Notes: generated by a model not told the origin, from the sequence alone. A stretch of DNA of 64,000 bases from Candidatus Omnitrophota bacterium (GCA_043732705.1 JAYTHE010000026.1:12136-76135), one strand, 5' to 3'; numbered from the stretch's first letter, positions 2,396-59,146 are shown. Numbers and translations are program-made.

Positions 2396-2645
2396 AAAAG
2401 TCCATTTATTAGCGCGAAAGCAGTTTCATAAGGTGTCTGGAGTCCAGCCCGTCATCGCGAGGAGCCCCGTAGGGCGACGTGGCGATCTGACGCTTTTTGT
2501 CATTCCCGCGAAGGCGGGAATCCAGACTGGATCCCCGATCAAGTCGGGGATGACACGGCGTGTCAGATTGCTTCGCTTTGCTCGCAATGACGTGATAATT
2601 AATAAGGACTCTTTGAGCAGCCCTTACCATTTCGGGAGAATATTT

Positions 2646-4595
2646 TTGAATTGTAGAAAAGTTTTTTATCGTAGTGCATGTTTTTGTCTTCTGTCTTTGG
2701 CTGTTAGTCTTTTGTTTCCGGCTTTTTGCCGGGCGCAGAATTTTGAATTCTCCAATGATGACAGAATTTTTATGCAAAAAATCGAGCGGCGCGCGCTCGA
2801 TTACTTTTTAAAAGAAGCTAGCCTTGAAAATGGGCTTGTGCGCGATTATGCTCCTAATCAAGCGGGCGAAGCCGACACTTCCCCCGCAACGATTGCCGCT
2901 TCGGGACTTGCTTTGAGTGCGTATGCCGTTGGAGTTGAGAATGGCTGGATTTTACGCGAGGAAGGTATGAATCGCACCAAACGAGCGTTGCGTTTTGCCT
3001 TGCAAGGCGTCGAGTCTGAGCATGGATTTTTTTACCACTTCGTCAGTTTTAGCTCTGGGAAGCGCATTTCACAATCCGAACTTTCCCCGATTGATACCGC
3101 GCTTTTTATCTCAGGAGCTTTATTTGCCGCGGAATATTATCAAGATCCGGAAATTTCGGCATTGGCTAGAAAATTATATGAACGCGTCGACTTTCCTTGG
3201 ATGCAAAACGGCGGGAAATTTTTTGCGTTATTTTGGACGCCTGAAAAAAAATTCAGCGACAAGCATTGGGATCATTACGATGAATCACTTTTGCTTTACG
3301 CGCTTGCGATCGGATCGCCGACGCACCCCATTGACGCAGACTCCTGGCATGCCTTGGCGCGTCCCGTGGGAAGTTATCAGTCTTACCATATGGTCGCGAT
3401 GCCGCCGCTTTTTACGCATCAGTATCCGCAAATCTGGCTTGATTTGCGTAACAAACAAGACGGTGTGATGAATTATTTCAATCATTCGGTTACAGCTTGT
3501 GAGGTGAACCGGGCTTTCGCGATGGATGAATCGGAGACTTATAAAACGTATGGTCCGGCCGCATGGGGAATTACCGCGAGCGACGGGCCGCATGGTTATA
3601 AAGCTTACGGAGCGCCGCCGGGCTGGGCGATTCACGATGGAACGCTTGCTCCAAGCGGGGCAGGAAGTTGTATGCCTTTTACGCCAAAAGAATCGCTTGC
3701 GGTTCTCCGGCACTTTGAATCCTACGGAAAAAAATTATGGGGGCGGTATGGTTTTGCTGATGCTTTGAACGACGATGAAAATTGGGTTTCACCGCGTGTG
3801 CTTGCGATTGATCAAGGCGCCATGATGCTCATGATTGAAAATGCAGCGAGCGGACTTTTATGGAAAACGACGAATCGCATTGCCGCATTCCAAAAGGCTT
3901 TTGAAAAAATTGGTTTTAAACCCGGCTCAAAAGAGTTGGCATGGGTTGATCCGCCTCATACGCGTGCCTTCTATGCAGCGGGCGGAATACAAGTCGATGG
4001 ATTTATGAAAGATTGGCCGGGCGGGATGGATGTGATTACGCTGGACAAAAGCTTTGCGGAGTTTGGCGACTTTCGCAAAGAGCATGACGCGCGCGCTAAA
4101 ATTCGCTTTGCTTGGGATGAAACCAATTTATATTTTGCCGCAGAAGTGGAAGATGACAGTATCGTGGCGCGCCAAAGCGGAACGCAGCTTTGGCGGGATG
4201 ATTTATTAGAAATGTATATTGACCCCCAGGGCGACGGACTTTATTGGGAAGATGAGCGTGATTTTCAAATTGGGTTTCGTCCGGTTCCCGGGAGTGATGG
4301 GGCCATGGTTTGGTCTTGGTTTCAAAAGGGTGAAGATCCGGTCCAAGCCGGTTGGGTTAAATCGCAAAGTTATAGCGATGCGCGCGGCTATGTCATCGAA
4401 GGCAGTATGCGTTGGGATCAGCTCGGTATTGTTCCGCGGCCGGGGCTTGAGGTCTCTTTAAGCCCGGCTTTGCATGATGTGGATGCTGACCATTCGCATC
4501 GCAAGTTACAATGGTTTTTCAGAAGCGAAGGAAAACTAAAAAAGTTTACACTGGGGAAAGTTATTTTGGAGGGACCGCATGGCGGAAAAAAATAG
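2646..4595 (+). CDS. Secreted glycoside-hydrolase-like protein ((alpha/alpha)6 glucoamylase-like/DUF3131-type core) with C-terminal CBM9-like carbohydrate-binding domain
   Basis: The ORF table extends to 2373, but 2373-2640 is translation of the palindromic repeat (VIPAKAGIQ ... RFARNDV). A signal-peptide-like segment (SLAVSLLFPAFCRA) begins near TTG 2646, preceded by GGGAGA; an alternative start is ATG 2771. The core motifs (DYFLKEASLENGLVRDY ... IAASGLALSAYAVG) resemble glucoamylase-like/beta-1,2-glucanase-type barrels. The C-terminus (RFAWDETNLYFAAEVEDDSIV ... DDLLEMYIDPQGDG) resembles CBM family 9. Confidence 0.55.
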   Translation: MNCRKVFYRSACFCLLSLAVSLLFPAFCRAQNFEFSNDDRIFMQKIERRALDYFLKEASLENGLVRDYAPNQAGEADTSPATIAASGLALSAYAVGVENGWILREEGMNRTKRALRFALQGVESEHGFFYHFVSFSSGKRISQSELSPIDTALFISGALFAAEYYQDPEISALARKLYERVDFPWMQNGGKFFALFWTPEKKFSDKHWDHYDESLLLYALAIGSPTHPIDADSWHALARPVGSYQSYHMVAMPPLFTHQYPQIWLDLRNKQDGVMNYFNHSVTACEVNRAFAMDESETYKTYGPAAWGITASDGPHGYKAYGAPPGWAIHDGTLAPSGAGSCMPFTPKESLAVLRHFESYGKKLWGRYGFADALNDDENWVSPRVLAIDQGAMMLMIENAASGLLWKTTNRIAAFQKAFEKIGFKPGSKELAWVDPPHTRAFYAAGGIQVDGFMKDWPGGMDVITLDKSFAEFGDFRKEHDARAKIRFAWDETNLYFAAEVEDDSIVARQSGTQLWRDDLLEMYIDPQGDGLYWEDERDFQIGFRPVPGSDGAMVWSWFQKGEDPVQAGWVKSQSYSDARGYVIEGSMRWDQLGIVPRPGLEVSLSPALHDVDADHSHRKLQWFFRSEGKLKKFTLGKVILEGPHGGKK

Positions 4596-5199
4596 TTCTG
4601 CTAAAAAGAAAGATCCAATAACCTCGATCAATGTAGGGCAAACCGTACGGTTTCTGCGCGAAAAGCAGCGGCTTACGGGCGCGGAACTGTGTAAGCGTTC
4701 CGGAGGGTTGGACCCCAAAACTTTGACTGCGGTAGAAAAAGGACGCATCCGTAACCCTTCGATTCAAACCCTTGAAGGTATCGCGCGCGGGTTGGGCGTG
4801 ACGATCAGCGCAATCTTTCGGCAGGCGGAATTAGGGAGCGAGAAGTTTTTTTTAAGAAGTTCACAAAAAGGGGTTTTCCACCTTCAGTTTGATCCCGGAG
4901 TTGAGTTGGTGTCGTTTACGCCCTTCACTCCCGGAATTTTTTGCGGAAAATTTATTATAGGCGGCCGCAAAACATTGGATCGTAACTTAATTCGTTTTGA
5001 CGGAACTGTTTTCGCCATGAGCTTGGTGGGGAATTTTCGCGTGAAGATGGAACAGCATGAGCTTGAAATCCGCGAAGGCGAGAATCTTTATTTTCGAGGC
5101 TCATTTGATTTTTCGTTTTATAACCCGAATTATCGCAATGCGGCTCTTTTAGTGGTTACCTCACCCTCTTTCTTGTCCGCAAGCGCAGCGGGGCATTAA
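4579..5199 (+). CDS. XRE-family HTH transcriptional regulator with C-terminal cupin domain
   Basis: Helix-turn-helix motif INVGQTVRFLREKQRLTGAELCKRSGGLDPKTLTAVEKG. The C-terminal ~100 aa has a cupin-like beta pattern. Confidence 0.7.
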   Translation: MAEKNSSAKKKDPITSINVGQTVRFLREKQRLTGAELCKRSGGLDPKTLTAVEKGRIRNPSIQTLEGIARGLGVTISAIFRQAELGSEKFFLRSSQKGVFHLQFDPGVELVSFTPFTPGIFCGKFIIGGRKTLDRNLIRFDGTVFAMSLVGNFRVKMEQHELEIREGENLYFRGSFDFSFYNPNYRNAALLVVTSPSFLSASAAGH

Positions 5200-5348
5200 A
5201 ATCATAAAAACAAGCACAAAATACTGGTTTATGAGGGCATATTTATATAGACTAACCCACAATCATAATCAAATCACCCGGGTTAAGGTAAATTTGAGTT
5301 TTGCCGATAGTATTTTGAAAATGATTTTCCAACAAAAAATAAATCGAA

Positions 5349-7217
5349 ATGAATAAAATACTCATTGTTTTTTCAGGGGTTGTGTTGATGGGGATGGGTT
5401 TGCATGCTGCTCCCGCCACGGCGCAGGATTCTTCCAAGATTAAATGGACGATTGTGGACGGTTCCAATAGTCACCCTGCGGTTTCAACGGTTTCCGCTAA
5501 GGAAGAAAAGCCCTCAAAAAAAGAAAAACCCAAGAAGAAAGAAGAACCCCAGCCGTCTTCTCATAAACCTTCCTTCTGGTCCAAAAGGGCCGATAAGCCT
5601 AAAAATGTTGACCGCCAATCCGAGATGGCAAAAGCCATGCAGGGCGTTCAACCGTCCAATCCCGAAACGGCAAAAGCCGGGCATCCTGTTTCGCCGCAGA
5701 ATCTTTTTAAATCACCCGACGTCACTCAGGAATCAATTGAACTGATGTTTGCCCCATACCGAACTCAAAATAAGCAGGATTTTCTTTCACGTCAGGGCCA
5801 TGGACTGGCGGATGTCATTGAACGGTCGCAAATGGTGCATACCCAGGCACGCGCGGCTCAAGAAAGCATCGCTCTCGCCCAACGCCGCCTGCTTTTGGCA
5901 ATTCGGCAAATGTTCCCCGAACTGACATTTGAGTACCAGCACCGGGATGGTTCACTTTCTGCCGCAGAATACATCTCAAGAGGGGATAAATTTTCTATGC
6001 GTCAACCCCTTTTCAGAGGCGGAGTTTTATGGAATAGTTTCTTGCAGGAGCGCAAAATGTTGGAATCAGCGCGCAGCAACTATCAGAAAGTAATCGACGA
6101 TCTTGTTTTTGAGGTTTCAAAGGTTTACTTTGAATATCAGCGCGCCCGTGCGGTTGCGGATGATCAAGCCAAAACGATCGAAGCCGTGAAACCGCAAATT
6201 AAAATTTCGGAAGAAAAATTTAAAGAAAAAATCACATCAGAAATTGAGCATTTAAACGCGCAATCTTTGGAAGGTCAAATTGAGTTTGATCATGAAACTT
6301 CAAAGCAGGAACTCGAAATCGCGACGCTTGATTTGCAGCATTATCTGGGTTTGGGCATGAAAGACCCTTTAAATTTAAGGCCTGAGTATGATGTGGATAA
6401 AGTGATTGCAGGCATGCCGGAGGATGATTTAACGGCGGCAAAAATTGAAACTTCGTTGGGTTCGTTCAGTCATGGCCAACCCATTCCCGGGCTTGAGAAT
6501 TTGGTTGAGATGTCTTATGGCCACCGTGCCGAATTAGCGGTTCAAATTTCTCAGCTTCAGGCCGCACGTTACGGTGAGCGCGCGAAATGGGGCGGCTTTG
6601 TTCCTAAGGCTGATTTGCTTGTGGAATGGGGCGCGCTCGCGGAATCTTTTAAAGAGCTTTCCAATAACCCGGATCATCATGCTGAGTTTCGGGCAATGAT
6701 TGAGGTGGATTGGAACGCGATGGGTAATAAACTTGCTTATACCAATGAAATGGATCATCGCGCGCCTTCCGTGACGCAGTTCCAATCGGGCGCCGGCACG
6801 ATTACCAACCGTCAGTCTTTTTCGGTCGGGCTTTTGAACGGCTTAGATGGTTTTGTGGACGTGAAGCAAGCCGAAGTTGAAAAGCTGAATAAAGTTGTGG
6901 AGCTTGAGCAGTCCGAAAAGAAAGTTTTGGAAGAAGTCAAGCGGGCTTATTACGATTACCAGAAAGCGTTGATTCAAATGAAATCCGCGATGAAACGCGT
7001 GCAATGGCGCCGCAGATTGCGTGACCTCGCGCAGCATCGCCTCGAACAAAAAGAAGTCGAGATCTCGGAGTATCTTCAATCCGAAATTGATCTTTTAAGA
7101 GAGCGCGGAGAATTTCATACGGCGCTGAAAGACTATTACACGGCGAAATCAAGTCTTAATTATGCCGTGGGTGTTCAAGAATTTTTAAATGAGCACAAAA
7201 CTTACGGAGCGAAGTGA
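5349..7217 (+). CDS. TolC-like outer membrane efflux protein (OMF) with Lys/Pro-rich N-terminal spacer
   Basis: Signal peptide MNKILIVFSGVVLMGMGLHAAPATAQ. Low-complexity spacer KEEKPSKKEKPKKKEEPQP. Two OEP-type coiled-coil repeat halves. First gene of the OMF-MFP-RND-RND operon. Confidence 0.7.
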   Translation: MNKILIVFSGVVLMGMGLHAAPATAQDSSKIKWTIVDGSNSHPAVSTVSAKEEKPSKKEKPKKKEEPQPSSHKPSFWSKRADKPKNVDRQSEMAKAMQGVQPSNPETAKAGHPVSPQNLFKSPDVTQESIELMFAPYRTQNKQDFLSRQGHGLADVIERSQMVHTQARAAQESIALAQRRLLLAIRQMFPELTFEYQHRDGSLSAAEYISRGDKFSMRQPLFRGGVLWNSFLQERKMLESARSNYQKVIDDLVFEVSKVYFEYQRARAVADDQAKTIEAVKPQIKISEEKFKEKITSEIEHLNAQSLEGQIEFDHETSKQELEIATLDLQHYLGLGMKDPLNLRPEYDVDKVIAGMPEDDLTAAKIETSLGSFSHGQPIPGLENLVEMSYGHRAELAVQISQLQAARYGERAKWGGFVPKADLLVEWGALAESFKELSNNPDHHAEFRAMIEVDWNAMGNKLAYTNEMDHRAPSVTQFQSGAGTITNRQSFSVGLLNGLDGFVDVKQAEVEKLNKVVELEQSEKKVLEEVKRAYYDYQKALIQMKSAMKRVQWRRRLRDLAQHRLEQKEVEISEYLQSEIDLLRERGEFHTALKDYYTAKSSLNYAVGVQEFLNEHKTYGAK

Positions 7218-7450
7218 GCGTAAGTTTAGCGTGCGAATTTATCCCAAACGTGTAGCTTTGAAGGTTCGGGATAAAGAAGAAATTGCGGAAGCAATTTTCA
7301 AATAAATGAGCAAAAAACTTCCGGAGTGAAGTAGGCACAGGTTTTTCGTGCGCCTGCTGGCGGAAATTTAAAATAATTCCGGACGCATAGCTATGATAGT
7401 CCGGGACAGAGAAGAAGTTGCGAAAGCAAGTTTCGACACAATGGAGAAAA

Positions 7451-15792: not shown

Positions 15793-16350
15793 ATGCAACA
15801 GCAACCGACCCGTAATTATCAACGTAAGGCGATGAATCTTTTTATTCACAAGGAGATGCAGCGCGAGTTTTCATTCGTGCTCATCGCGCTTTTGATCGTG
15901 TCGTCATTTTGCGTGGCGCTCACGATTCACTACACCATTCAACATGCCGCGTTTGGAGACCAGGCGCTGCAGTTTGGAAAAGTCAATCCTTACGAAGTGA
16001 TTGCTCAGGTGAGTTATCAAATCGTAATGCGCGTGACGGTGATTTTGATTTTGACGCTCTTTGTTGTAGCGGCATATGGCATTAAATTCTTGCATCGCGT
16101 TGCAGGCCCGATTTATCGTTGCCGCAAAACTTTAATTTTATTGAATCAGGGTAAAATCCCGGATCATATTCGTGTGCGCTCGGGGGATTTTTTTGATGAA
16201 GTGGCGGAAGAAATTAATCGTCAAACTGATTTGTGGATCGCTGAAAGCCAACGCAAAGAGGAGCTAGCCCGCCAAATTACGGATTTATCCGGTTCGATTA
16301 CGTCGTCCGATGTGAAAACAAAGGTTGAAGCGCTTAAGCAGTGGATTTAA
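15793..16350 (+). CDS. Hypothetical membrane protein (two TM segments)
   Basis: Strong RBS AAGGAGG 6 nt upstream of ATG 15793. Two hydrophobic helices. No recognised catalytic motif. Confidence 0.5.
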   Translation: MQQQPTRNYQRKAMNLFIHKEMQREFSFVLIALLIVSSFCVALTIHYTIQHAAFGDQALQFGKVNPYEVIAQVSYQIVMRVTVILILTLFVVAAYGIKFLHRVAGPIYRCRKTLILLNQGKIPDHIRVRSGDFFDEVAEEINRQTDLWIAESQRKEELARQITDLSGSITSSDVKTKVEALKQWI

Positions 16351-16355
16351 ACATT

Positions 16356-16429
16356 CCATCCTACCTCCCGGTAGTAGGAAAGACTCCTGCTGCCGGGAGG
16401 TAGGATGGGTTGGTGTAATGATTTTTTGC
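16356..16429 (+). terminator. Strong hairpin (16-bp perfect stem CCATCCTACCTCCCGG / CCGGGAGGTAGGATGG) downstream of 15793..16350; terminator-like
   Basis: The inverted repeat 16356-16371 / 16393-16408 is read directly. The T-run at 16424-16429 lies 15 nt downstream and the loop is 21 nt, so this is an atypical intrinsic terminator. Confidence 0.4.
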
Positions 16430-23162: not shown

Positions 23163-23190
23163 TGTCATTCTCGCGCAGGCGGGAATCCAG
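23163..23190. repeat. Single unit of the palindromic hairpin repeat family (TGTCATTCTCGCGCAGGCGGGAATCCAG)
   Basis: Read directly. Lies 14 nt upstream of ATG 23204, at the boundary of the AT-rich segment. Confidence 0.8.
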
Positions 23191-28791: not shown

Positions 28792-28859
28792 GACAAAAGA
28801 CTACAGGCTAAAGGTCGACGCACAATGACAAATTTTATTTGTCATTCGGAGAGGGCGGC

Positions 28860-28928
28860 TGTCATTCCCGCGAAGGCGGGAATCCAGTTTTTAATCTGAC
28901 TAGATTCCCGCCTTCGCGGGAATGACAG
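28860..28928. repeat. Inverted pair of palindromic hairpin units (MITE/REP-like)
   Basis: TGTCATTCCCGCGAAGGCGGGAATCCAG at 28860-28887 and the reverse unit CTAGATTCCCGCCTTCGCGGGAATGACAG at 28900-28928, separated by a 12-nt spacer. Confidence 0.85.
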
Positions 28929-28949
28929 AGTAGCAATTCTCATTAAAGC

Positions 28950-29267
28950 TTGGTTTACTTGAAAGAATATTTTGTTTATATTTTAGCAAGCAAGAGAAAT
29001 GGAACTCTTTATATTGGAGTTACCAATGATCTTGTGCGTAGGGTATATGAACACAAGCAGGGGTTGGTTGAGGGTTTTACGAAAGAATATGGAGTTGACC
29101 GGCTGGTCTATTTTGAACAAACGAATTCCGTTGAAGCAGCGATTTTACGTGAGAAGCAAGTTAAGAAATGGAATCGTCAGTGGAAATTAAGATTGATAGA
29201 AAATCAAAATCCAGAATGGGAAGATTTGTACAACAAGTTGACTGGATTCCCGCCTTCGCGGGAATGA
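28950..29267 (+). CDS. GIY-YIG nuclease family protein (COG2827-type small URI-domain endonuclease)
   Basis: YFVYILASKRNGTLYIGVTNDLVRRVYEHK ... KKW matches the GIY-YIG core. Start is TTG 28950. The last codons and the stop (..TGFPPSRE*) lie inside a repeat unit. Confidence 0.8.
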   Translation: MVYLKEYFVYILASKRNGTLYIGVTNDLVRRVYEHKQGLVEGFTKEYGVDRLVYFEQTNSVEAAILREKQVKKWNRQWKLRLIENQNPEWEDLYNKLTGFPPSRE

Positions 29268-29270
29268 CAG
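29242..29270. repeat. Single reverse-orientation hairpin repeat unit overlapping the GIY-YIG stop codon
   Basis: CTGGATTCCCGCCTTCGCGGGAATGACAG. The stop TGA falls at 29265-29267 inside it. Confidence 0.85.
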
Positions 29271-29342
29271 TAAAAACAGAGGTTTAATAATCGTGGATTT
29301 AACTGTCTTTAGTCCACAGTCTTCAGTCTTTGGTCTGCTATT

Positions 29343-29888: not shown

Positions 29889-29911
29889 TCACGGACGTGG
29901 TCCGAGATCTT

Positions 29912-29979
29912 TGTCATTCCCGCGAAGGCGGGGATCCAGGTCTAACGATTACTAGATTCCCGCCTTCGCGGGAATGACA
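29912..29979. repeat. Inverted pair of palindromic hairpin units
   Basis: TGTCATTCCCGCGAAGGCGGGGATCCAG at 29912-29939 and CTAGATTCCCGCCTTCGCGGGAATGACA at 29952-29979. Confidence 0.85.
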
Positions 29980-29991
29980 TTAAAAAGGAAA

Positions 29992-31230
29992 TCATCTCTT
30001 TTTTAAGATGACGAGGGTTTCAATATGCTTGGTACGCGGAAACATATCAAAGGCCTGAACAGATTCCACCTTATAAGCCCGCTCGGTGAGTATCCTTAAA
30101 TCGCGCCCTAAAGCCCCCATATGACACGATATATATAGTATCGAATCAGGGCCCTTCCCTGAAGAAAGCGCCTTAGAAACGATGGGATCAAGGCCTGTGC
30201 GGGGAGGGTCAAGCAGGGCAAGAACGGGGCCATGGTGCTCTTCTTCCAAAATATCTTCGATGCAGTTTTCCACTTCTTCAGGGGCGATTTCAGCTGCAAG
30301 CCCCGCGTTATTCAAATTCATTTGCAAGGCGTCAATCGCTTGCGGATGACTTTCAACACACAAGGTTTGAGATTTGCTTGGATGCACGAGCATTGTAAAA
30401 GTACCCACGCCCGCGTAAAGATCCCAAAAATGTTCCGGTTTTAAACTTTCATACTGCGCATGAATTTTTTCTGCGATTTTTAAAGTCATTTCAAGATTAT
30501 TTTGAAAAAAGCAGCGCGAATGTGTTCGCAGGCGGATATTACCAACCGGAATATTAAAAAAAGTATCTTCAGCGCTTGTGGTAACTTTGCCTGCGGCTCC
30601 CACACGCACTGTGATTCTATTTGCTTTTGCAGTGTCATCCTCGCGCAGGCGGGGATCCATGTGCGGGTCGTTGGTCTGACGCGCAGTAGTCATCCCTGCG
30701 GAAGCAGGGATCTTCTGCCTGTTATCTCGAGTCTCTGGTCTCAGGTCTGCCAGAAATGAGTTAATCTCATTTTTAGCAAGTAGGCATGATTTGATTGCGA
30801 CTTTCGACTCATTGTTCTCATCCACAAAACCCCAGCCGTTATTTGCGTGATGTAAAGTGATGTGATTGCGATAGCTGTAAGGGTTGGAATTCGCGACAAT
30901 CGGCAGAAAAAGTTCATCGGGAAGCTGCAGCTGCTTTTGTAAAGATTCACGGATTTGAATTTCTTTCCATTTCACTTCTTCCGCGTAGCTCATGTGCTGA
31001 TACTGACAGCCGCCGCAGGAACCATAATAGGGGCAGGGAGGCGTCTCCCGCGCGTTAGAAGGATTCTCAATTTTGATGGCCCGTGCTTCTATAAAATTCT
31101 TTTTATCCTGAAGAATTTTAATTTCAACCGTTTCGCCCGGCAAAGCATTTTCAACAAAGCAAACTTTGCCTTCAAATCTGCCAATACCTTTTCCGCCGTA
31201 ACCTATTTTTTCGATTTTGATTTGTGTCAT
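29992..31230 (-). CDS. rlmD: 23S rRNA (uracil-C5)-methyltransferase RlmD/RumA family (TRAM + [4Fe-4S] + SAM-MTase), carrying an in-frame repeat insertion
   Basis: TRAM N-terminus (IGYGGKGIGRFEGKVCFVENALPGETVEIKI). Cys cluster CPYYGSCGGCQYQH. MTase motifs DLYAGVGTF and nucleophile ISCHMGALGRD. The segment IPASAGMTTARQTNDPHMDPRLREDDTAK is translation of the repeat family. Confidence 0.85.
   Translation of the reverse strand: MTQIKIEKIGYGGKGIGRFEGKVCFVENALPGETVEIKILQDKKNFIEARAIKIENPSNARETPPCPYYGSCGGCQYQHMSYAEEVKWKEIQIRESLQKQLQLPDELFLPIVANSNPYSYRNHITLHHANNGWGFVDENNESKVAIKSCLLAKNEINSFLADLRPETRDNRQKIPASAGMTTARQTNDPHMDPRLREDDTAKANRITVRVGAAGKVTTSAEDTFFNIPVGNIRLRTHSRCFFQNNLEMTLKIAEKIHAQYESLKPEHFWDLYAGVGTFTMLVHPSKSQTLCVESHPQAIDALQMNLNNAGLAAEIAPEEVENCIEDILEEEHHGPVLALLDPPRTGLDPIVSKALSSGKGPDSILYISCHMGALGRDLRILTERAYKVESVQAFDMFPRTKHIETLVILKKR
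30633..30717. repeat. Two direct hairpin repeat units inserted in-frame inside the rlmD-like CDS
   Basis: TGTCATCCTCGCGCAGGCGGGGATCCAT at 30633-30660 and TAGTCATCCCTGCGGAAGCAGGGATCTTCTG at 30687-30717. The minus-strand reading frame continues uninterrupted. Confidence 0.8.
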
Positions 31231-31256
31231 ATGAATTAATTTTTTGTATCCGTACT

Positions 31257-31325: not shown

Positions 31326-31390
31326 CGGGTGATTATAGACAAAAAAAGAGGAGAGACCTACAAAAGTCTCTCCCCTTAAATTAAAGAATG

Positions 31391-33125: not shown

Positions 33126-33299
33126 ATGACGCATCCTGAAAAAATAAACACAGATAGTTGGATCGAAATCAAATTGATTGTTGAGCCGGAGGAATATCGA
33201 TTCCTTCAAAAGCAAGCTCAGCGCAAAGACATGATGGTTTCAGACCTAATTCGGCAAATTGTTCTGCGCTACATCGGTAATGAACGGGGGAGTTTATGA
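33126..33299 (+). CDS. Small (57 aa) ribbon-helix-helix-like protein, translationally coupled to the giant gene
   Basis: Absent from the ORF table (below 60 aa). Reads MTHPEKINTDSWIEIKLIVEPEEYRFLQKQAQRKDMMVSDLIRQIVLRYIGNERGSL. The beta-alpha-alpha pattern is CopG/RHH-like. Its TGA overlaps the giant gene's ATG (ATGA at 33296-33299). No strong SD. Confidence 0.4.
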   Translation: MTHPEKINTDSWIEIKLIVEPEEYRFLQKQAQRKDMMVSDLIRQIVLRYIGNERGSL

Positions 33300-42200: not shown

Positions 42201-45200
42201 TTAATTCTCAAAATAGAGTGTCTCTTGCTCGGGCTGAAGTGGATGCAATTTTTGTATGGATGGATAAGCAAAACTTGCACTTTGGTCAATCCGCTTTCAT
42301 TTCCTTAGAAGCGCTGCTTGACGATGCGGGCATTGCGCACAACCGCATTAATATGGCGCGGGATTTAATTTTAACTGACATTATTACCGGTACTCTTACT
42401 CCGATTGAAAAAGGTGATTTGCTTATTTCGATGTATGCGATGAATGCCTATGCCGCCCGGTTTGGTTTAAATTTATCGCCACTCAAACTAACTTACGACG
42501 CCCTCAAGTCTATTTTTGATACTTGGTGCGTTGAGCATGGTTCATGCGCGGGATTCCGTTTGGTTGCGCATATGGATGGTAATCATTACGTTGTAGTTAC
42601 AGGCATTACTACGCGGGTTGAAGATGGGAAGACTATCGAAGAAGTTCACTATACTGATCCGGGCGCGGGCAAGAACGGTGACGAAGCGGTTGTCGTATCC
42701 AAAGATGATTTTTTGAAGTATTGGATTAATCAATCCGCAAAGTTAGACAGCCCGGATGCATCTAACTTACAAAACTCAGCTATGGGTTATATCCTCTCGC
42801 CGCGCGCGCCTCCGGCTGCTAAAAAAAGTGAATTCCGTGTTTTAAATTTCACAGAGCAAATGCAGGTTCGCGGCTCCTTCTTCTTTCTCATTCCCATTAT
42901 CGTAGCTGCTATCGTTGTAGCTATTCATGCCATTGTTGGCGCAATTATCGCAGCGATCACGGCGATTATCGGCGCACTCGTAGCAAGTGTTAGCACAATC
43001 ATTACCGGTTTCACCACGTTCTTTGGTGGATTATTCGGAAATTTCTTAACAACATTCTCTGGATTTTTTACCGGAATATTTCACGGTTTGACTTCGCTCG
43101 GCGGACTTGTTTTTAATGCGATTACGTACGGTCCTAATGCGGTTCTTGGAGTGCTTGGCCTGAAAGCCGGAACCTTTCTCGGCAGCGTGGTTTTCTCAAG
43201 CTTGATAGGCGCTGAATTCTTGGGTGCAGGAAAGCTTTTAGAATTGACGGGTTTGTCCCCAAAATTCGCGCAAACGATTATTAACTTTGGAAAAATTATC
43301 ACGGGTGTCAGTCTTATCGCAACGGGCGCTGGAAGTGTTCTTGGATTCGGATTCATCAGCGCGGGAACAACGGATTTGCTCCATGCCTATACAAATCTTT
43401 CACCGCAGTTTATCAATGCTCTTTCCATTGGTGCGCAGGCATTAAGCGCGTTTGGAATTGGTGGAGTTATCGGCGGAACTATCCAAGGCGCAATGAATGC
43501 GCTTAAAGAAGCAACTCCATTTTTGACGAAAGAGCTTTCATCGCTGGGGTTGCTTAGTTTTGGGACGAGCAAAAGCCTCAGGCTCGCTGCCTTGCTTGAA
43601 ACCCCGATCAATTTATTTACGGGCGCACTTTTGGGAGGAGGGTTTTCAGCAGCTAATATTCTGAACTCCGTCAAAACGGCGCTTTTTAGTCAGCAAGCAC
43701 TTGCTAGTTTTATTTCGATCGGGGCGCAAGTGGGACTGAATGCATTACCGATTAACCCTCTTTTGGCCGGCTTAGGCGGGGTAGTTATTTCGGGGCTGAT
43801 TGATGGATTGGTTCCGGTCAAAAAAGTTCCGGGCTTGGAAATTGGCGCGCCTATTTTTGAAACAACTTATCAATTGAAAGGCGTGCTGGAAGGATTAAAA
43901 AATGCCGTTCAACGCGCCTTCAATACTGTTTTGGAGACTCTTAGAACAGAGTCAGTGCGGTTTGACGTATCAGTTGCGAAAAATGGACTTAAAGCAACTC
44001 TCTCCGACATTGTAGCAAGCGCGCTTGACCGCTCTTCAATTGAAGGTTTGATTGGAACTGTCGGTAACCTCTCGGATTATATTGAAGACAAATATAACAA
44101 TCACTCCACGATCGTTAATTATCACGGTTCGCCGGCTAAAGAAGTCACTTTGGATGTAAATGGTAAAACCGTCATTATGACATTCGATCAGGCGACACAT
44201 GAACTTTTGCGCGTTGATGGCAGCAATGGGCATATTTTAGAAGGCGATTTGCGGCTTGGGGCGAATGGAAATATATACGCTTTTAACGGTTCGGAATTAA
44301 CCTCTGGAGCCAATGGCGTCGTGCAACAGTTTACTTATGAAGACGGCAATCTTGTTTTTTCGCGCTATGTCGGTGATGGTAAAGGCGCGGATTGGTACCC
44401 TGAGCAAGGTAAGAAATTAACTCTTTATTCAGACGGACAATTGCGTGACGGCATTATTGAAGACTTGAGTTCGGGCGCAAAGACGGTTGTGCGCAACGGA
44501 AAAATTATTGAAGTTATCAATCCGCTTAAGCTTGAAATCGCACCGAATTCAATCGGCGGCGAGCAAGTTCCACTTTTTGAGCAGGCAGGGCTGCTTGGCG
44601 AAGATGGAAAATTCACAAATTATGAATATCGAATCAATTCCGCGGCGCTAAAAGGAATGCGGTCAGATGATTTAAGCAGCGCGGCGTTGACGGGCTTAAA
44701 AGAATCCATGAATGATCTTTCCAGTTGGCAGGGAACACCGGCAGGATTTGCGAAAACAGGTATTCAAAAAGTTCAAGCATGGGAGGAGAATTTTTATGCG
44801 GTGAACGGCAGTCCTCTGACAAATCGCGGTTCCTTGGGTGTTTTTCTTGCGGCAGGAGCCATTAAAGGCGTGTTCGATATTGGCAATTTTGGAACAGACA
44901 CGTACTTGGCGGTGGAATCATTAAAAGAAGCGATTCGAACCGGGGAATTCGAAACCGGCGCGAAGAATTATTTTGATAATTGGAAAAATTCGCTTCTCAC
45001 TAATCCTTTGATTTCTGTGGCTAACGTATTTGGAGTCAACACCCCCAATTTAAATCAAGCCGTGTCGTCTATGGGCAACGAAACCATGCGCGTCATGAAT
45101 GCCTTTGGCACCGCAGAAATGGTCAAGGTTTTATGGCCGTACAAAGGAATTTTCGCTACGGGGTTAGTATCTGCTCTGAAAGATGATTTTGGACAGCTCA

Positions 45201-45748
45201 TTAGGAGTGAAGGCGGGTATATTCGAATTGTTCGAGAAACTTTTGGGGAAAGAGTATCAAGATTGCTTGGAAATCCTACCAGCGGTAACTTAAATGAGAT
45301 CGAGGGATTATTACGAAATAAAGTCAATATGCAGGAGGTCTTATTTAAAGAATATAAGAGTGCAACAGATGTGACTGAGGCGGCTCAACGCGGCTTTTTA
45401 AATTTGGATGTTAATACAGCACGATCATTTAAAGGCGGACAGTATCAAGTTAGAGTTTTATCGGAAGATCTTGTAGTGTATCGAGCAGAAGGTGGATTGG
45501 CCAAAAAATATGGCGCATTTTTTGGCACTGAAAAACCTATTAATGCTTACGATGCGGATCGGCTCTATAATGTCGTTGTGCATGGCAATGATGTGCAAGA
45601 GGTTTCTACGTATATAATTAAAAAAGGCACAGTGGTCTACGAAGGTGGGGTAGAAGGTGGGGTAGGTGTTCAAATGTTTTTGAGAAATCCAAAAGAAAAA
45701 GATGTGGCTCTTTTAGCTACAGAAATCTTAGAAAGAAGTACTACATGA
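33296..45748 (+). CDS. Giant (4150 aa) secreted multidomain protein: Ig-like tandem repeats, YD/RHS-like repeats, FG-GAP-like Ca-binding repeats, coiled coil, DUF4214-like motif, C39-like peptidase motif, 330-aa glycine-zipper hydrophobic region, variable C-terminal domain (polymorphic-toxin/teneurin/Tc-toxin-like architecture)
   Basis: Single uninterrupted 12.4 kb ORF. Signal peptide MRLKKTVKKVTALFLIVTFSWTNLIGANSWA. Five ~93-aa repeats (DT-PTG-I-IN-G...GDGNKT-YVKF-DKAGN). YD-like segments (VYDEDGKLTAI, ETRYTYNASAELTRTEITYKG). Six FG-GAP-like repeats of the form L-D-[MLI]-[ND]-G-D-G-x-P-D-R (written xDxNGDGxPDR elsewhere). Heptad-rich region at aa ~2740-2880. VYHWYRTILGRDPSESEYEAA (DUF4214-like). 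CAGFRL ... NHYVVVTG (Cys...His). aa ~3192-3521 is hydrophobic and G/A/I-rich. Confidence 0.85.
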   Translation: MRLKKTVKKVTALFLIVTFSWTNLIGANSWAAVEPIQMVNGQATAVTDPFATNTSTTQMGTVPVDFLAQQPVVTTAAAVSLVSIAPTAALKSTNVSSLLGNPKPYILSSSTSATNLSYVNNAFNFGYSVPNTNDKSGFSVSFDNTSTALIETQSLTKMTLGLKGTASTIQLEIVDSSGMHDKILLTGISNTVEQFWKIPTAYFSASVNKAKITQINFIVDQSNTTTTARSGTLNVRLNGLDVASPTAPLVQSAPPAFSNVNNITLSGAKEANTSLLINGVEVMPRNNSTAWSYQVSLPIEGKYIFSLIVKNSLGKISAASTVAITRDTVLPTGTIIIDSGALYSTDLNVALKLSAVDAGSAVKKMSFSADGVNWSAQETYVTAKTLTLSSGDGNKTVYVKFYDGAGNASAVYSKSIIVDTLPPSGTIKVNDGVAMINQRVAMLNLLAVDVGSGVSKMSFSTNGTSWTTAEVYGTTKDWIFSAGDGNKIVYVKFLDKSGKWSTPISAAVLMDTIKPTGSININSGAAYVNLPEIALNLSAADLGGAGIGSMSFSSDNVNWTVPEAYTTTKSFVLSPGDGNKTIYVKYFDKAGNVSVAYSKSILLDTIAPTGTMRINGGESFVSQTAVTLNLTAADSGTGLDKVSFSNDGVNWSVAETFAAEKNWVLAIGEDLKTVFVKFLDKAGNWSSVISNSIFLDVTAPTGAININSGTAYTNSKNITLNLLANDSGSGIDKMSFSVDGINWSALENFTASKAWMLSDNDGNKTIYVKYFDKAGNGSVAYSKSIILDTIAPIIDLLNAPTHANSASYMTQYRVDGVLKDKAFTLSSGMNAISIREIDFAGNETIRTWNVEYSTTEDINLAGGGLQHFENGKIQYQVNADGSRVNYNSDGSIANFSWGIANGNTKVTFLNDAQNSLEIRDASNQLIKIISNVKPPEPNLSNALKINLQDGIETYYSEGVLKEIRTAENVKLFNLTMSAPVSASEVPEIRDAVIAYPNGSIDIMWNKFLIRRITVDGSITDMLPDGTIGREISEEIEQTYLGIYDASGNVAGTKILSNQGDEVTYDEKGILKEVKGHDGKHFVYDRTQSGNQYLLSLNGALSSSASDQTLKSGKYAQDGSVLELDFQNGSKVTFENGQIKQAVNAQGETVNYSQLLSNGLAQGLMVNRGLANFTYDITGFLSQIQTEQGIITREQVDSNHDGLLNDQDTVDLLLELTGGNKLTDFQLDVNGKILNGIIETREGIKQKIENGILRELITADGKKYLIHNGQAELDTWAFQDGIVVKYGGTSIQQILFPNGKRFEQVQLNAQKEIASYVEIDGNTQSFFENGILKKRVFDGVQIFYSIDGRAQKIIRANGAEEFVEHQFDVNGNWVGLNLVSADGMLVYDEDGKLTAILTSGLTAQVEDSTIKSLSTRFGNIQDPVFNAKGNLNGEVVLSDERKLLIQDGKLLRITFKNGTQIDCANGRISRVENSEGIYQLTYLENSSALEDVKVNYVLSPGTSATGLTVEMSLASYLLANPYSEFSKIISPRPAKDIFAGGIQTQLGAHGLLDLSKIVEDQDRGDTYSVGGIFDPNLSDIYNLDGNYNGGYLSKSLMGMIASDLLDLDGDGDLDRIFVDSSKNFWWVQKFENGSFLSAEKWIGIEAIGNTVNNFALRFSNDSNTAVMGNLLDMNGDGRPDRVVASVNENPVWYVQLNNGVGFDPAKIWSNVQPLIQINAGDPINKYALQVRENSSQNQFFISDLIDMDGDNLPDRIIQSQASPVPGADPFNHWFFQKNNGHGFDEAVIWKGINNSFDLDPKIGSGMNVFFNSTTWFDEDLRLAFTSAHASFNNAWTSKNINAYRATFLLTKSMVKGPPGILNWLNSLEPQLFGTTCVKNICTQYIKENVYQAANALFSNIDSVQRNILTTSVLKDMNGDGRPDRILLKQKNPSNANSGYSWYIQWNNGSGFDPAVLFDDQVRSVSGSIAQQGASTAIQSFFAWDQKEKTRSYLSYLADVTGDGLPDRITLDSWSMVPANRWWVEVNDGKTFKDAVAWDGVEGSALAQIAPSQGIEGAATQSSNVSVISKLIDINGDKIPDHIFFKEGTNQWVVQYGTGHGFLPSQPMEIQGIRNKEAFNAAKYEYAHISLRAQYPDLVQNGKLVIRLIDENNKEVQKWEITGANNSWKDQYLAIDRAKTGGRYLDARWELNAGVVAADPQILVDDVSLISLHPNASTEWLDYLLTEGNVINAVQAAANDPAIHDLAQVVNAQDTFDWKKLLAVETKINFNATGAVSGAEKLNGETSQVQTSGNTTTITVAHTDGTVTQTTVPTAGSSNSYTKSINYDNGTPDNLTDDYTEIAMIAYDRMRSVTRDHSHKQPLQYSYEFDELNREITVIYDPDSNETEKSRAVSGLNGDENKIVAQIAANGVETRYTYNASAELTRTEITYKGRVRETFEQSITADGLHALKTESGSIEFYNEQGQIVGHRTTDGYYYKHEFAPAKTIETSITTKTVVLCDSAKQDCSAIPVAQRTLTVQIPTVTLTDCLINCETIHQVTLDHLTDLDGNIAFYTGSQLSSLELSTGLKMTFDGMITENSKDVNGNDIEITKPKNVVIFHQDGTITEFKNGLPYSVTSAAGHVISIEPDTETTTTGRVVLKNPSSSAEFHYAEAVKLWNQKVLANFDKYQLPDSQVVQVEYAKTGNKIVTQLFASGGREMYDAAGHIDFVVSEEGDRIIDYDYDAAGNPTAIHLEGSRRKLDQTILDLKIEIALKQYQSLLDVAEREQILNETVESQYIVQRNQLIALRAQIESQRNQLASIKVKGKAGKNSISDAMQQINVGLGQVNQALYQLLENRTQALANLQGQVKNLNTQINDQTTQAYTDISNKEREVQNSILTQEISPIVYHWYRTILGRDPSESEYEAAKSLANYSSGTFNLTSLKAQLQNSPEYVQRTAEVAAIKAAVKTQLLNYLAADDAGKQAFVAGLGINSQNRVSLARAEVDAIFVWMDKQNLHFGQSAFISLEALLDDAGIAHNRINMARDLILTDIITGTLTPIEKGDLLISMYAMNAYAARFGLNLSPLKLTYDALKSIFDTWCVEHGSCAGFRLVAHMDGNHYVVVTGITTRVEDGKTIEEVHYTDPGAGKNGDEAVVVSKDDFLKYWINQSAKLDSPDASNLQNSAMGYILSPRAPPAAKKSEFRVLNFTEQMQVRGSFFFLIPIIVAAIVVAIHAIVGAIIAAITAIIGALVASVSTIITGFTTFFGGLFGNFLTTFSGFFTGIFHGLTSLGGLVFNAITYGPNAVLGVLGLKAGTFLGSVVFSSLIGAEFLGAGKLLELTGLSPKFAQTIINFGKIITGVSLIATGAGSVLGFGFISAGTTDLLHAYTNLSPQFINALSIGAQALSAFGIGGVIGGTIQGAMNALKEATPFLTKELSSLGLLSFGTSKSLRLAALLETPINLFTGALLGGGFSAANILNSVKTALFSQQALASFISIGAQVGLNALPINPLLAGLGGVVISGLIDGLVPVKKVPGLEIGAPIFETTYQLKGVLEGLKNAVQRAFNTVLETLRTESVRFDVSVAKNGLKATLSDIVASALDRSSIEGLIGTVGNLSDYIEDKYNNHSTIVNYHGSPAKEVTLDVNGKTVIMTFDQATHELLRVDGSNGHILEGDLRLGANGNIYAFNGSELTSGANGVVQQFTYEDGNLVFSRYVGDGKGADWYPEQGKKLTLYSDGQLRDGIIEDLSSGAKTVVRNGKIIEVINPLKLEIAPNSIGGEQVPLFEQAGLLGEDGKFTNYEYRINSAALKGMRSDDLSSAALTGLKESMNDLSSWQGTPAGFAKTGIQKVQAWEENFYAVNGSPLTNRGSLGVFLAAGAIKGVFDIGNFGTDTYLAVESLKEAIRTGEFETGAKNYFDNWKNSLLTNPLISVANVFGVNTPNLNQAVSSMGNETMRVMNAFGTAEMVKVLWPYKGIFATGLVSALKDDFGQLIRSEGGYIRIVRETFGERVSRLLGNPTSGNLNEIEGLLRNKVNMQEVLFKEYKSATDVTEAAQRGFLNLDVNTARSFKGGQYQVRVLSEDLVVYRAEGGLAKKYGAFFGTEKPINAYDADRLYNVVVHGNDVQEVSTYIIKKGTVVYEGGVEGGVGVQMFLRNPKEKDVALLATEILERSTT
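34270..35680 (+). repeat. Five tandem ~279-bp coding repeats (Ig-like modules) inside the giant gene; repeats 3 and 5 are near-identical at the DNA level over ~100 bp
   Basis: GATGGGAATAAAAC(A/G)ATTTATGTAAAATATTTTGATAAAGCGGGGAATG ... CGCTTA(T/C)TCAAA at about 35028 and about 35578. The protein-level periodicity is listed in the call. Confidence 0.8.
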
Positions 45749-46107
45749 TTAAATCTTTATCCGAAACTCGCAAATCAATTGTAGAAATAGTTGGGTTTTT
45801 GAAAGTGCACAATGATTTAGTTTGGACTAAATATTTGAGTGGAATGCTTTCGGAGTTTGACAGGGTTTTTGGTGGAGCCGAAGTAGATCAGCAGGGTGGA
45901 AAAAGTATTTTAGAAAAAATCGACAAGCTATTCGGTGGCATGGGCTCATTGAATGATTTGAATATTTACAAAGAGAATGGTCATATTGTAAGTAATGAAA
46001 GAGAAGCCAATGTGGAATTAAGCAAATTACGATCAAGATTATTTGATAATGTTCAGAGAAGTATTTTGGAGATGCAGCAACAACAGGAGAGATCGGAACA
46101 TTTCTAA
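45745..46107 (+). CDS. Small (120 aa) cytoplasmic protein translationally coupled to the giant gene's stop; candidate immunity/partner protein
   Basis: Its ATG at 45745 overlaps the giant gene's TGA at 45746-45748 (ATGA). No signal peptide. Acidic, helical. Motif SILEKIDKLFGGMGSLNDL. The assignment rests on position only. Confidence 0.5.
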   Translation: MIKSLSETRKSIVEIVGFLKVHNDLVWTKYLSGMLSEFDRVFGGAEVDQQGGKSILEKIDKLFGGMGSLNDLNIYKENGHIVSNEREANVELSKLRSRLFDNVQRSILEMQQQQERSEHF

Positions 46108-46153
46108 AAGTGCCAGGTCTAAAAGGACAAAAAGTTGAAAAAGATATTAAGTT

Positions 46154-46741
46154 ATGCCAAGAAGACCAAGAGTATTAGTAGATGGTGGAATCTATCATGT
46201 TTTTAATCGTGGAAATAACCGACACGATTTATTTTGTGATCAAGAGGATGCAGGAATTTTCCTTTCGTATTTATATGAAATCAAGCAAGAGCTTGGGGCG
46301 AGCATCTATCACTATTGTTTGATGACCAACCACTTTCATTTTTTGATGAAGGTTGAGAGGGGCGAGGACTTGTCGAAAGTGATGCATAGAGCACAATTGG
46401 GATATGCGCGTTACTTTAAGCGAAAATATAAATTTGTTGGGCATGTGTTTCAGGAACGGTTTCGAAGCCCATTAATTGATAGAGAGGCTTACTACCTCCA
46501 GTGTGGGAGGTATATCGAGCGCAATCCTGTCAAAGCGGACATGGTGAAGAATGCCTGGGACTACGAATGGACGAGTGCTACGTATTATGCGCTAGGTGAA
46601 AAGGATGGAATGATAACTCCAAACCCATATTATGAGGGAATGGGCAAGGATGCAGCGAGTCGGCAGGAGAGTTATCGTAGCTTTTTAGCGATCGAAGATG
46701 CTTATTCAAAGTTAATTGATGAGGCTTTAATTAAATGTTAG
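46154..46741 (+). mobile_element. IS200/IS605-family Y1 (HuH) transposase of the REP-associated tyrosine transposase (RAYT, COG1943) type
   Basis: IYHVFNRGNNRHDLFCDQED ... YHYCLMTNHFHFLM (HuH motif HFH) ... catalytic Tyr in YIERNPVKADMV. Matches the RAYT signature YI..NPVKA. Confidence 0.8.
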
Positions 46742-47040
46742 TAATCGAACCCGGCACTTTTAGAAATGTTCCGATCTCTGTTCTAAGATATGCCAGTGAA
46801 CAAAATGGAGCTGGTAGTTTTTTAACCAAAAGTAATTATTCAGATGTCGCTCAAGCTGTTAGTGGATTAAACTTGGAGCCAACTAATAATTTAGCAAGTT
46901 ATAAACAAGTGGTTATGGTGGAAAAACCCACGCTGGTTTTAGAAGGTAAAATTGCCGGAAGTGGTGATGGTTCTGTGCAATCAATAGTCCTCGAGAAAGA
47001 TAGCTTTGTTTTTCAGGCAGGAGAAAGTATTAATGATTAA
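46735..47040 (+). CDS. Hypothetical small protein (101 aa), coupled to the transposase stop
   Basis: ATG 46735 overlaps the RAYT stop by 7 nt. AT-rich DNA. No motif recognised. Confidence 0.4.
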   Translation: MLVIEPGTFRNVPISVLRYASEQNGAGSFLTKSNYSDVAQAVSGLNLEPTNNLASYKQVVMVEKPTLVLEGKIAGSGDGSVQSIVLEKDSFVFQAGESIND

Positions 47041-53555: not shown

Positions 53556-53620
53556 TGTCGTCCCCGCGAAGGCGGGGACCCAGTTATTATTTCTGGATTC
53601 CCGCTTACGCGGGAATGACA
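53556..53620. repeat. Inverted pair of palindromic hairpin units between glgB and glgX
   Basis: TGTCGTCCCCGCGAAGGCGGGGACCCAG at 53556-53583 and CTGGATTCCCGCTTACGCGGGAATGACA at 53593-53620. Confidence 0.85.
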
Positions 53621-53644
53621 ACTGAGAATAACGGAGTTAGGAAG

Positions 53645-57484: not shown

Positions 57485-57501
57485 TCCGTTTCGCCCCATT
57501 T

Positions 57502-58175: not shown

Positions 58176-58196
58176 TCTTTTCCTGGCTGAGAGAAT

Positions 58197-58232: not shown

Positions 58233-58464
58233 TCTTCTGTTTTATATTGCGACCATCAACAAGCCTGCGGTCGTCTTTTGGCAATCCTCGATAAAAATCG
58301 AACCGGGCATGCTGCGCTTTGAACCTCAATTTTTGATAATGCTTGGATTGGTCTCTAGCGTATTTTTAGGGTATTTCTCGAGAGGATTTTCAGAAAGTTC
58401 TTTTCGGATTTAGGGCAAACAGGCTATATTGCTTCAACGTCAGACTAAACTGAGACAATAATAT

Positions 58465-59004
58465 ATGTTATGTTCCTGCGGTAAAAAAGAGGCGACAATT
58501 CATTTGACCGAAATTGTCAACGCTCAAGTCACGGAGCTTCACTTATGCGAAGCTTGCGCGAAAGATCAGGGAACTGACTTTAAGCAATTTCTTGCCCCTT
58601 TGCAGGGCGGTATGCCGGATTTGGCGGGTATGTTTTCAAAAGCCATGGGGTTGGCTCCCGGACAGGATATGAAGTGCCAGTCCTGCGGCATGACCATGGG
58701 TGATTTTGAAAAGGCGGGCCGTTTGGGATGTGCCGGTTGTTATAAGACCTTTGCGCCTTATTTACTACCGTTGATTAAACGGATTCACCGTCATGACCAG
58801 CATCACGGAAAAACGCCGGGAAATGTAAAACAGGTTGTTGCCGATAATAAAGCAGCCCCGCGGGGTAAATTGTCCGATTTGGCGATCCTGCGCAAAAAAC
58901 TCACCGAATGTGTGAAGACTGAAGATTATGAGGACGCGGCACGGCTGCGTGATGAAATTCAAAAATATGAAAAGTCCCATTCTAAAAAAAAGGTTAATTT
59001 GTGA
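58465..59004 (+). CDS. McsA-like zinc-finger protein with C-terminal UVR domain (UvrB/UvrC motif-containing protein)
   Basis: CSCGKKEATIHLTEIVNAQVTELHLCEAC ... CQSCGMTMGDFEKAGRLGCAGCYKTF ... LRKKLTECVKTEDYEDAARLRDEIQKYE. Collinear with McsA. Confidence 0.8.
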   Translation: MLCSCGKKEATIHLTEIVNAQVTELHLCEACAKDQGTDFKQFLAPLQGGMPDLAGMFSKAMGLAPGQDMKCQSCGMTMGDFEKAGRLGCAGCYKTFAPYLLPLIKRIHRHDQHHGKTPGNVKQVVADNKAAPRGKLSDLAILRKKLTECVKTEDYEDAARLRDEIQKYEKSHSKKKVNL

Positions 59005-59107
59005 GCGGAAAATATAAAGTAAATGACGACATTTTTTTATGGAGCAGCGCGAACATAAATAATGATGGGTCGGAATTTATCCCAGAAAAATGCGCAGCAT
59101 TTCATCC

Positions 59108-59146
59108 GGGACCCAGGCTAGATTCCCGCCTGCGCGGGAATGACAG
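59108..59146. repeat. Degenerate hairpin repeat pair upstream of topA
   Basis: GGGACCCAGG remnant followed by CTAGATTCCCGCCTGCGCGGGAATGACAG at 59118-59146. Confidence 0.75.

Follow-up and report, generated by a model that had tools for sequence, protein, structure and literature searches.

What lies behind the short hairpin repeats scattered over a 64,000-nucleotide (nt) stretch of DNA from a Candidatus Omnitrophota bacterium (GCA_043732705.1, JAYTHE010000026.1:12136-76135)? In this stretch, called the window below, an original prediction had noted a family of such repeats, resembling REPs or miniature inverted-repeat transposable elements (MITEs), and had pointed to a GIY-YIG gene next to a copy without making the link between the two. 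The general description holds: the units are REP/MITE-like hairpins, mostly in inverted pairs at gene boundaries. The GIY-YIG gene, however, is the cognate partner of the repeats and not a bystander. Very probably the units are the single-stranded DNA (ssDNA) recognition sites of the Ssn-type GIY-YIG endonuclease that it encodes. This reading is based on the sequence identity of the units to published motifs, the covariation within the hairpin, the architecture of gene and repeats, and the oriented units found at Ssn loci elsewhere.

The unit is 28 nt long, TGTCATTCCCGCGAAGGCGGGAATCCAG, and consists of an 8-base-pair (bp) stem, ATTCCCGC/GCGGGAAT, a 4-nt loop, and a non-palindromic head and tail. 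A search of the window (G+C content about 38-47% in 4-kb blocks) with this sequence at up to three mismatches gave 11 matches, with 0 expected. The published SRM regular expression, HGTCWYN(0-2)YYVSBRHN(0-5)WNVSBRGN(0-2)RNCYNB, gave 13 matches against 0.15 +/- 0.36 in 100 dinucleotide shuffles. Beyond these 13 copies there are two variant units and one remnant, which brings the total to nine loci, the same nine that had been proposed; a hairpin-aware scan counts 14 units, variants included. The consensus written earlier, CCCGCG-AAGG-CGCGGG, contains an extra CG, and its literal core, CCCGCGAAGGCGCGGG, has no match at fewer than two mismatches. The earlier description of an 8-bp stem with a GAAG-type loop is right for the stem and for some of the loops, which are GAAG, GCAG or GTAA according to DNA folding.

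Folded as ssDNA, the single unit and the pairs obtain z-scores of -4.2 to -11.8 compared with shuffles. To this we can add the covariation among 90 distinct units from about 200 loci, where 97.8% of the stem cells are paired and compensatory changes are found at six of the eight stem pairs, a level reached by none of 500 shuffles; the search pattern constrains some of these columns, though not their complementarity. No unit departs from GTC in the head or from C behind the stem, at positions that the pattern itself fixes. Head and tail are kept across phyla. Rfam and tRNA scans of the window gave no match, and no Rfam family fits the units.

Judged by their sequence, the units belong to a family that has already been named, as the CGTC-1 REP and as dRS3/NTS/SRM. 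According to Di Nocera et al. (BMC Genomics 2013, PMC3733652), the "CGTC-tagged" REPs have a tag that is often TGTC, an 8-bp stem starting with AT, a 4-nt loop and a CCA tail, and they mostly occur as inverted dimers; CGTC-1 corresponds to dRS3 of Neisseria, and its family also includes RPE-6 of Rickettsia. The window units carry the TGTC variant of the tag, the same stem, loop and tail, and are mostly inverted homodimers, with a similar placement relative to genes and occasional intragenic copies. At that time no dedicated enzyme was known for the CGTC repeats, and no RAYT flanked by them was found (PMC3733652). Unlike in that description, and as in the work of Chenal et al. (Nat Commun 2025, PMC11893778), the window contains a flanked GIY-YIG gene that fills this gap.

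The 28-nt NTS of Neisseria, CGTCATTCCCGCGMAVGCGGGAATCYRG, contains dRS3, and is bound and cut as ssDNA by SsnA, a 94-amino-acid (aa) single-domain GIY-YIG nuclease of cd10448 whose gene is typically found in an NTS-ssnA-NTS layout; the NTS has been generalised to the degenerate SRM pattern (PMC11893778). The Ssn proteins of Neisseria and Wolbachia bind the hairpin only on the (C/T)GTCAT...CCAG strand and ignore double-stranded DNA and RNA. Both head and tail of the unit are needed by the protein, and cleavage occurs a few nucleotides 5' of the head, on one strand only (PMC11893778). Length, stem, loop class, head and tail of the window unit all agree with the NTS, and seven window copies differ from the Neisseria consensus by a single mismatch, always T for C at position 1, where none would be expected.

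The gene, here called ssn, has PF01541 as its sole domain, spanning residues 7-80 of the 105-aa translation of its open reading frame (ORF, 28950-29267). The protein is shorter than 150 aa and has one domain, in line with the Ssn family. No ATG is found in frame upstream of the TTG at 28959, and we take this TTG as the start, giving 102 aa, because the homologues begin with MK(E/S)Y(F/Y)VYIL. The public annotation (P0009) has a 77-aa product starting at MRRVYEHK, which lacks Y7 and the tyrosine of the YIG motif, Y18. We found 7997 homologues, and those in other phyla are 70-82% identical. In the homologue alignment Y7, Y18, R28, H32 and E65 are invariant. The catalytic Tyr/Tyr/Glu positions correspond to those of SsnA, as Y7, Y18 and E65 match the mutated Y6, Y17 and E64 of the Neisseria protein by spacing, not by direct alignment. 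The nearest solved structure is UPF0213 BH0048 (1ZG2, E 2.4e-6), and NCBIfam has no specific model for the protein. Among viral_contigs, no Ssn relatives were found.

A small single-domain GIY-YIG gene between inverted units is present, as in the NTS/SsnA system. The bracketing copies (28859-28888 and 29241-29270) are complementary over 30 nt at 100% and have their heads outward. The original prediction that a unit overlaps the stop codon of this gene is confirmed by reading the sequence: the last eight codons and the stop of ssn are the reverse complement of an NTS unit, ...ACT GGA TTC CCG CCT TCG CGG GAA TGA. In a 78%-identical homologue (P0001) the C-terminal end is likewise derived from a unit. 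Directly to the left of the cassette, at 28826-28859, two unit heads form a small palindrome, AATGACAAATTTTATTTGTCATT, and next to it comes the truncated start of a unit, TGTCATTCGGAGAGGGCGGC; both could be scars that earlier units left there.

The orientation seen at ssn recurs over the rest of the window. Inverted pairs make up six of the nine loci, with spacers of 1, 12, 12, 12, 9 and 1 nt and lengths of 45-68 bp, which replaces the earlier figures of 8-25 nt and about 70 bp. The pairs had been called head-to-head; they are indeed mostly inverted, but the TGTCAT ends point outward in every one of them. One of the copies is degenerate, as had been noted (59101-59116). The pair reported as intragenic lies in frame within RlmD, as stated, with its units in direct and not in inverted orientation (30633 and 30688). 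A contig from an independent Logan assembly of the same organism (L001, SRR23617244), the only other one with identical sequence, matches window 29245-31285 at 100% and ends inside NTS units on both sides, as expected if the units are present in enough copies to break short-read assemblies.

To see how widely the unit occurs, we scanned a collection of species-representative genomes for exact matches to the 28-mer, allowing C or T at position 26. The exact 28-mer is present in at least 119 genomic stretches from many phyla; among the matches listed, the hosts include Zixibacteria, Planctomycetota, Nitrospirota, Chloroflexota, Patescibacteria, Proteobacteria, Bacteroidota, Gemmatimonadota and Rickettsia. 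Close pairs in the 119 matches listed, among which the source genome is not represented, are heads-outward in 49 cases and heads-inward in one. Two loci (L022 and L044) show a compact cassette, NTS(+)-5 nt-ATG...stop-12 nt-NTS(-). In metagenomes, an SRM is found within 300 nt at 50 out of 80 loci with Ssn relatives of 60-78% identity. The units upstream of these genes are mainly on the plus strand (27 versus 7), 4-50 nt before the start, while those downstream are mainly on the minus strand (34 versus 6), 6-30 nt after the match. Pairs in Candidatus Hatepunaea have spacers, and even extended flanks, that are conserved between copies, from which we conclude that the pair is copied as a unit. 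Outside the immediate lineage RlmD is only about 43% identical, compared with the 70-82% of Ssn in other phyla, and this difference points to horizontal movement of the cassette.

We compared the window with relatives at 77-84% DNA identity or at greater distance; intergenic DNA can be aligned only at the GlgB-GlgX site and upstream of topA. The closest named relatives of the host, for both RlmD and Ssn, are Candidatus Omnitrophota. Three related loci (L121, L124 and L126) keep the order giant protein - FadL - RlmD - RmlC - [slot] - response regulator - kinase. In the window (28792-29342) this slot, with RmlC on one side and the response-regulator gene on the other, contains the ssn cassette; it is empty in L121, with a gap of 6 nt. 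In L124 (11833-12195) and L126 (3475-3834) it is occupied by a small gene for a 23S_rRNA_IVP/bAvd four-helix bundle. It has the look of a hotspot of small accessory genes. The pairs in the RmlC/RlmD and RlmD/FadL gaps are absent at the equivalent positions in the same three loci, each of which carries a unit elsewhere.

A similar pattern is seen inside RlmD. The linker of the window protein contains two in-frame units (KIPASAGMTT...MDPRLREDDT), while that of orthologues with 66-79% identity has one (P0128, P0130, P0136, P0137) or none, and even between the near-twins P0137 and P0138 the unit content is not the same. At the GlgB-GlgX site L129 (about 82-84% DNA identity) has the pair as well, in decayed form, and L127 (about 77%) has none. 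In both L129 and L127 the unit upstream of topA is missing or replaced. As the cassette and pairs are lacking in relatives, the linker has gained units and one pair is kept at about 82% identity, the unit family turns over. The mobile reading of the original prediction survives, with units that are neither restricted to the window nor fixed at orthologous positions. Its statement that the element is recently active is not borne out, since the identity of the copies is no clock: an exact 28-mer in at least 119 stretches of many phyla indicates constraint or transfer.

If the protein acts like its homologues, this Ssn would bind and cut the window units. With the heads outward, one cut would be expected directly beyond either end of a pair or cassette, the two being on opposite strands. 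Ssn may then restrict incoming or exposed ssDNA that carries units, by analogy with transformation in Neisseria, and we infer that it drives, or once drove, the spread of the units. The gene-less pairs of 45-68 bp have the same heads-outward geometry as the cassette, and are therefore best read as its miniature, non-autonomous versions or as its preferred landing sites.

Several observations weigh against assigning the units to this enzyme. The protein appears to be a member of the Ssn family, with proxies standing in for membership of cd10448/SsnA, and the cutting of the window units is argued from homologues. The cassette is atypical, with a TTG start, an extra inward-facing unit (28900-28927) between the left repeat and ssn, and a stop that the repeat supplies; the cassette is perhaps in decay. 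Among the matches listed, an ssn homologue is nearby in only 6 of the 119 loci with the exact 28-mer, and units are found on both sides in only 16 of the 67 evaluable Ssn loci. No target-site duplication or conserved cleavage-site motif was found at the units or pairs, where the 5' flank is merely pyrimidine-rich and G-poor, a bias of composition. A hydrolytic GIY-YIG nuclease is not known to have any strand-transfer or joining activity, and so does not account for the multiplication of the units. The function described in Neisseria also requires that the organism takes up DNA (PMC11893778).

We consider it possible, but put it forward only tentatively, that NTS-ssn-NTS represents, or represented until recently, a mobile ssDNA element that is autonomous and of a class not yet demonstrated. 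Its sole protein would be a hydrolytic GIY-YIG nuclease of about 100 aa, cutting outside each outward hairpin on opposite strands, and in the heads-outward pairs of 45-68 bp we would have its miniature, non-autonomous forms, the equivalent of RAYT/REPIN with a GIY-YIG enzyme. The joining step would have to be supplied by host replication or repair. This proposal draws on the three states of one syntenic slot, the recurrent gain in the RlmD linker and the pairs copied with their spacers, none of which is available at nucleotide resolution. The same slot, where relatives have nothing or another small gene, could also be explained by homing. The gene-less pairs would then be resident targets instead of deletion derivatives, and ssn a selfish gene that cuts at the units. 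Host repair would place a copy of ssn in the spacer of a pair, with the two units of the pair as short homology arms. GIY-YIG enzymes are classical homing endonucleases without transposase chemistry, canonical cassettes carry the gene exactly at the position of the pair spacer, and the full pair directly to the left of ssn gives the impression that the gene arrived in or next to units already present. However, homing does not explain how pairs with conserved spacers multiply, and 28 nt is a very short length for a homology arm. Further, the window has one copy of ssn, most unit loci among the matches listed have none, and no pair of empty and filled alleles was found at nucleotide resolution. 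On balance we regard homing as unlikely.

Two explanations dispense with Ssn altogether. The units might be regulatory hairpins of the host, i.e. terminators or stabilisers or processing sites at mRNA 3' ends, next to an unrelated GIY-YIG gene. Every intergenic copy occupies a short spacer whose flanking genes are co-directional or convergent, never divergent, as reported for REPs in general (PMC3733652); transcription would then include the copies, which could fold in RNA. A terminator role had been part of the original prediction, but a T-run follows only one of the 13 SRM copies. With a hairpin plus T-run as criterion, only the unit at 28864-28883 is flagged, and the regional count of terminator-like sites equals that of shuffles. 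The FadL-type gene has a separate classical terminator (31346-31377) next to a pair, and units are also found in frame within RlmD. An RNA stem-loop has no need of the conserved non-palindromic head and tail, which the Ssn protein does need, and the association of gene and repeat is statistical over many genomes, both at the metagenomic Ssn loci and in published data (PMC11893778). A secondary effect in RNA is possible; that the units are regulatory hairpins of the host is improbable. Even less credible, to the point that we give it hardly any weight, is that the pairs are REPINs moved by the RAYT-type tyrosine transposase of the window (46154-46741). A Y1 transposase is indeed present (PF01797, E 7e-13) and inverted REP pairs are the classical substrate of a RAYT. 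However, this gene has its own 31-nt inverted repeats (46088-46118 and 46749-46779, 97% complementary) that are unrelated to the units, the nearest of which is about 7 kb away. The tag of the units is TGTC/CGTC and not GTAG, and Di Nocera et al. found no RAYT flanked by CGTC repeats (PMC3733652). The RAYT was therefore rejected as partner on account of its own repeats and its distance from any unit, and the units are not GTAG-tagged REPs flanking a RAYT as in REPIN-RAYT systems. That the units are independent of this gene had been correctly noted.

The coordinates of the units and of ssn are collected in Table 1.

Table 1. The ssn gene and the hairpin units of the window. In the columns: the feature, its position, the strand, and remarks.
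Feature	Position	Strand	Remarks
Second CGTC-tagged hairpin unit, CGTCATCGCGAG...GGCGATCTGACG	2450..2492	+	Left arm of outer pair enclosing the NTS pair
NTS/SRM unit, exact master copy TGTCATTCCCGCGAAGGCGGGAATCCAG	2498..2525	+	Left half of pair (1-nt spacer); folds as hairpin
SRM variant TGTCATCCCCGACTTGATCGGGGATCCAG	2527..2555	-	Right half of pair; stem differs and loop is longer than in NTS units; same head and tail
Second-family unit CGTCATTGCGAGCAAAGCGAAGCAATCTGACAC	2560..2592	-	Right arm of outer pair
Single NTS/SRM unit	23163..23190	+	In the 72 nt that separate two histidine-kinase genes
NTS unit, exact master copy	28860..28887	+	Left terminal inverted repeat of ssn cassette; also left half of 68-bp pair
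NTS unit, tail CTAG	28900..28927	-	Right half of 68-bp pair; 31 nt 5' of ssn start codon
ssn gene	28959..29267	+	Single-domain GIY-YIG nuclease, 102 aa, TTG start; Pfam PF01541, E 9.7e-17
NTS unit, exact master copy	29242..29269	-	Right terminal inverted repeat of ssn cassette; overlaps ssn stop codon
68-bp inverted NTS pair	29912-29939, 29952-29979	+, -	Convergent RmlC/RlmD gap; 12-nt spacer; fold z -11.0
SRM unit inside RlmD (gene on - strand)	30633..30660	+	In-frame peptide MDPRLREDDT
SRM-like variant AGTCATCCCTGCGGAAGCAGGGATCTTC inside RlmD	30688..30715	+	Direct orientation to the 30633 unit; peptide KIPASAGMTT
68-bp inverted NTS pair	31257-31284, 31297-31324	+, -	RlmD start/FadL-type gene end; 12-nt spacer
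Decaying inverted pair	53556-53583 (head TGTCGT), 53593-53620	+, -	GlgB/GlgX gap; 9-nt spacer
Remnant left unit with internal deletion (59101-59116) and intact NTS unit (59118-59145, -)	59101..59145		5' of topA

Compared with the published NTS/SsnA system, the units are again seldom intragenic. Unlike there, where groups of symbionts and pathogens are highlighted (PMC11893778), the host is an uncultured Omnitrophota-like bacterium. The head is TGTC instead of CGTC, and ssn has its TTG start and its stop from the repeat. In contrast to the large clusters of units in Neisseria, those of the window are mostly tight heads-outward pairs.

The REPIN-RAYT system (Bertels and Rainey 2011; Nunvar 2010) is similar in several ways. 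In both cases hairpin repeats form inverted pairs and each pair is copied as a whole, a gene that is present once and encodes an ssDNA-specific nuclease is flanked by the same repeats, and long persistence is combined with turnover. The systems differ in their enzyme, a hydrolytic GIY-YIG nuclease versus an HUH tyrosine transposase, and in their tag, (C/T)GTC versus GTAG. REPIN-RAYT is described as mainly vertical, whereas Ssn and its units are strongly shared horizontally between phyla, and the RAYT-like gene of the window carries unrelated repeats. With the MITEs derived from insertion sequences the pairs have in common that they are short inverted-repeat elements without a gene, whose ends are also those of an element with a gene; they lie dispersed over intergenic DNA, and a protein linker tolerates them in frame. 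Unlike classical MITEs, no pair shows a target-site duplication, there is no DDE transposase and the partner is a GIY-YIG nuclease. Each "end" of a unit pair is moreover itself a hairpin recognised as ssDNA.

An unannotated repeat family of an uncultured Omnitrophota-like genome is hereby assigned to the Ssn/NTS system, and three gene calls are corrected. One is ssn itself, with 77 aa in the public record. The others are ORFs 2373 and 53555, which are inflated by translated repeats and contain the peptides VIPAKAGIQ and IPAYAGMTT, in agreement with the original prediction. The syntenic presence and absence of the cassette, of pairs and of the RlmD linker units bears on the mobility of NTS-ssn-NTS and on the multiplication of the repeats, a question left by Chenal et al. 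(PMC11893778). The TGTC-headed unit with its enzyme is also a candidate pair for the toolbox of sequence-specific ssDNA nucleases.

A second hairpin family encloses the NTS pair at 2498-2555. Its motif is CGTCAT(C/T)GCGAG...ATCTGAC, and the 149-nt composite (2447-2595) folds as one nested structure (z -5.8). In the form [CT]GTCATTGCGAG, variable inner hairpin, GCAATC[CT]A, this family occurs as "+ then -" heads-outward pairs in many phyla, and it is also present in L007, L023, L025, L043, L062, L116 and L161. It does not fit the SRM pattern. When translated it yields peptides such as VIARSPVGRRGDL and LLRFARND.

The window also contains other repeats. A 35-nt inverted repeat (CCTACCTCCCGG.../...CCGGGAGGTAGG) at 16345-16419 resembles a palindrome, TAACCTTCCTAACTCCCGGAGTTAGGAAGGTTAGA, that two relatives have in the FadL/RlmD gap, upstream of RlmD (L121 9857-9897 and L124 9918-9952); the two may represent another lineage-specific repeat family. 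Short motifs, GACTA(A/C)AGAC or AGTCTTCAGTC together with runs of CGACCACCGAC, recur in intergenic spacers of the host lineage. Such motifs and runs are found at both flanks of the ssn cassette (28792-28830 and 29300-29340), in L121 (9760-9800) and in L124 (11780-11830 and 12190-12240). A 50-nt direct repeat lies between two genes (7186-7235 and 7303-7352), with 80% identity and a spacing of 117 nt. The Y1 gene is IS200-like, of the RAYT/TIRYT type, and no other copy of its 31-nt repeats was seen in the window. In a giant ORF (33296-45748, 4150 aa) there are diverged internal tandem repeats of about 276-279 nt (e.g. 34412-35670). Its counterparts in relatives have 5392 and 7079 aa, with faint matches to Laminin_G, Big_13 and RHS.

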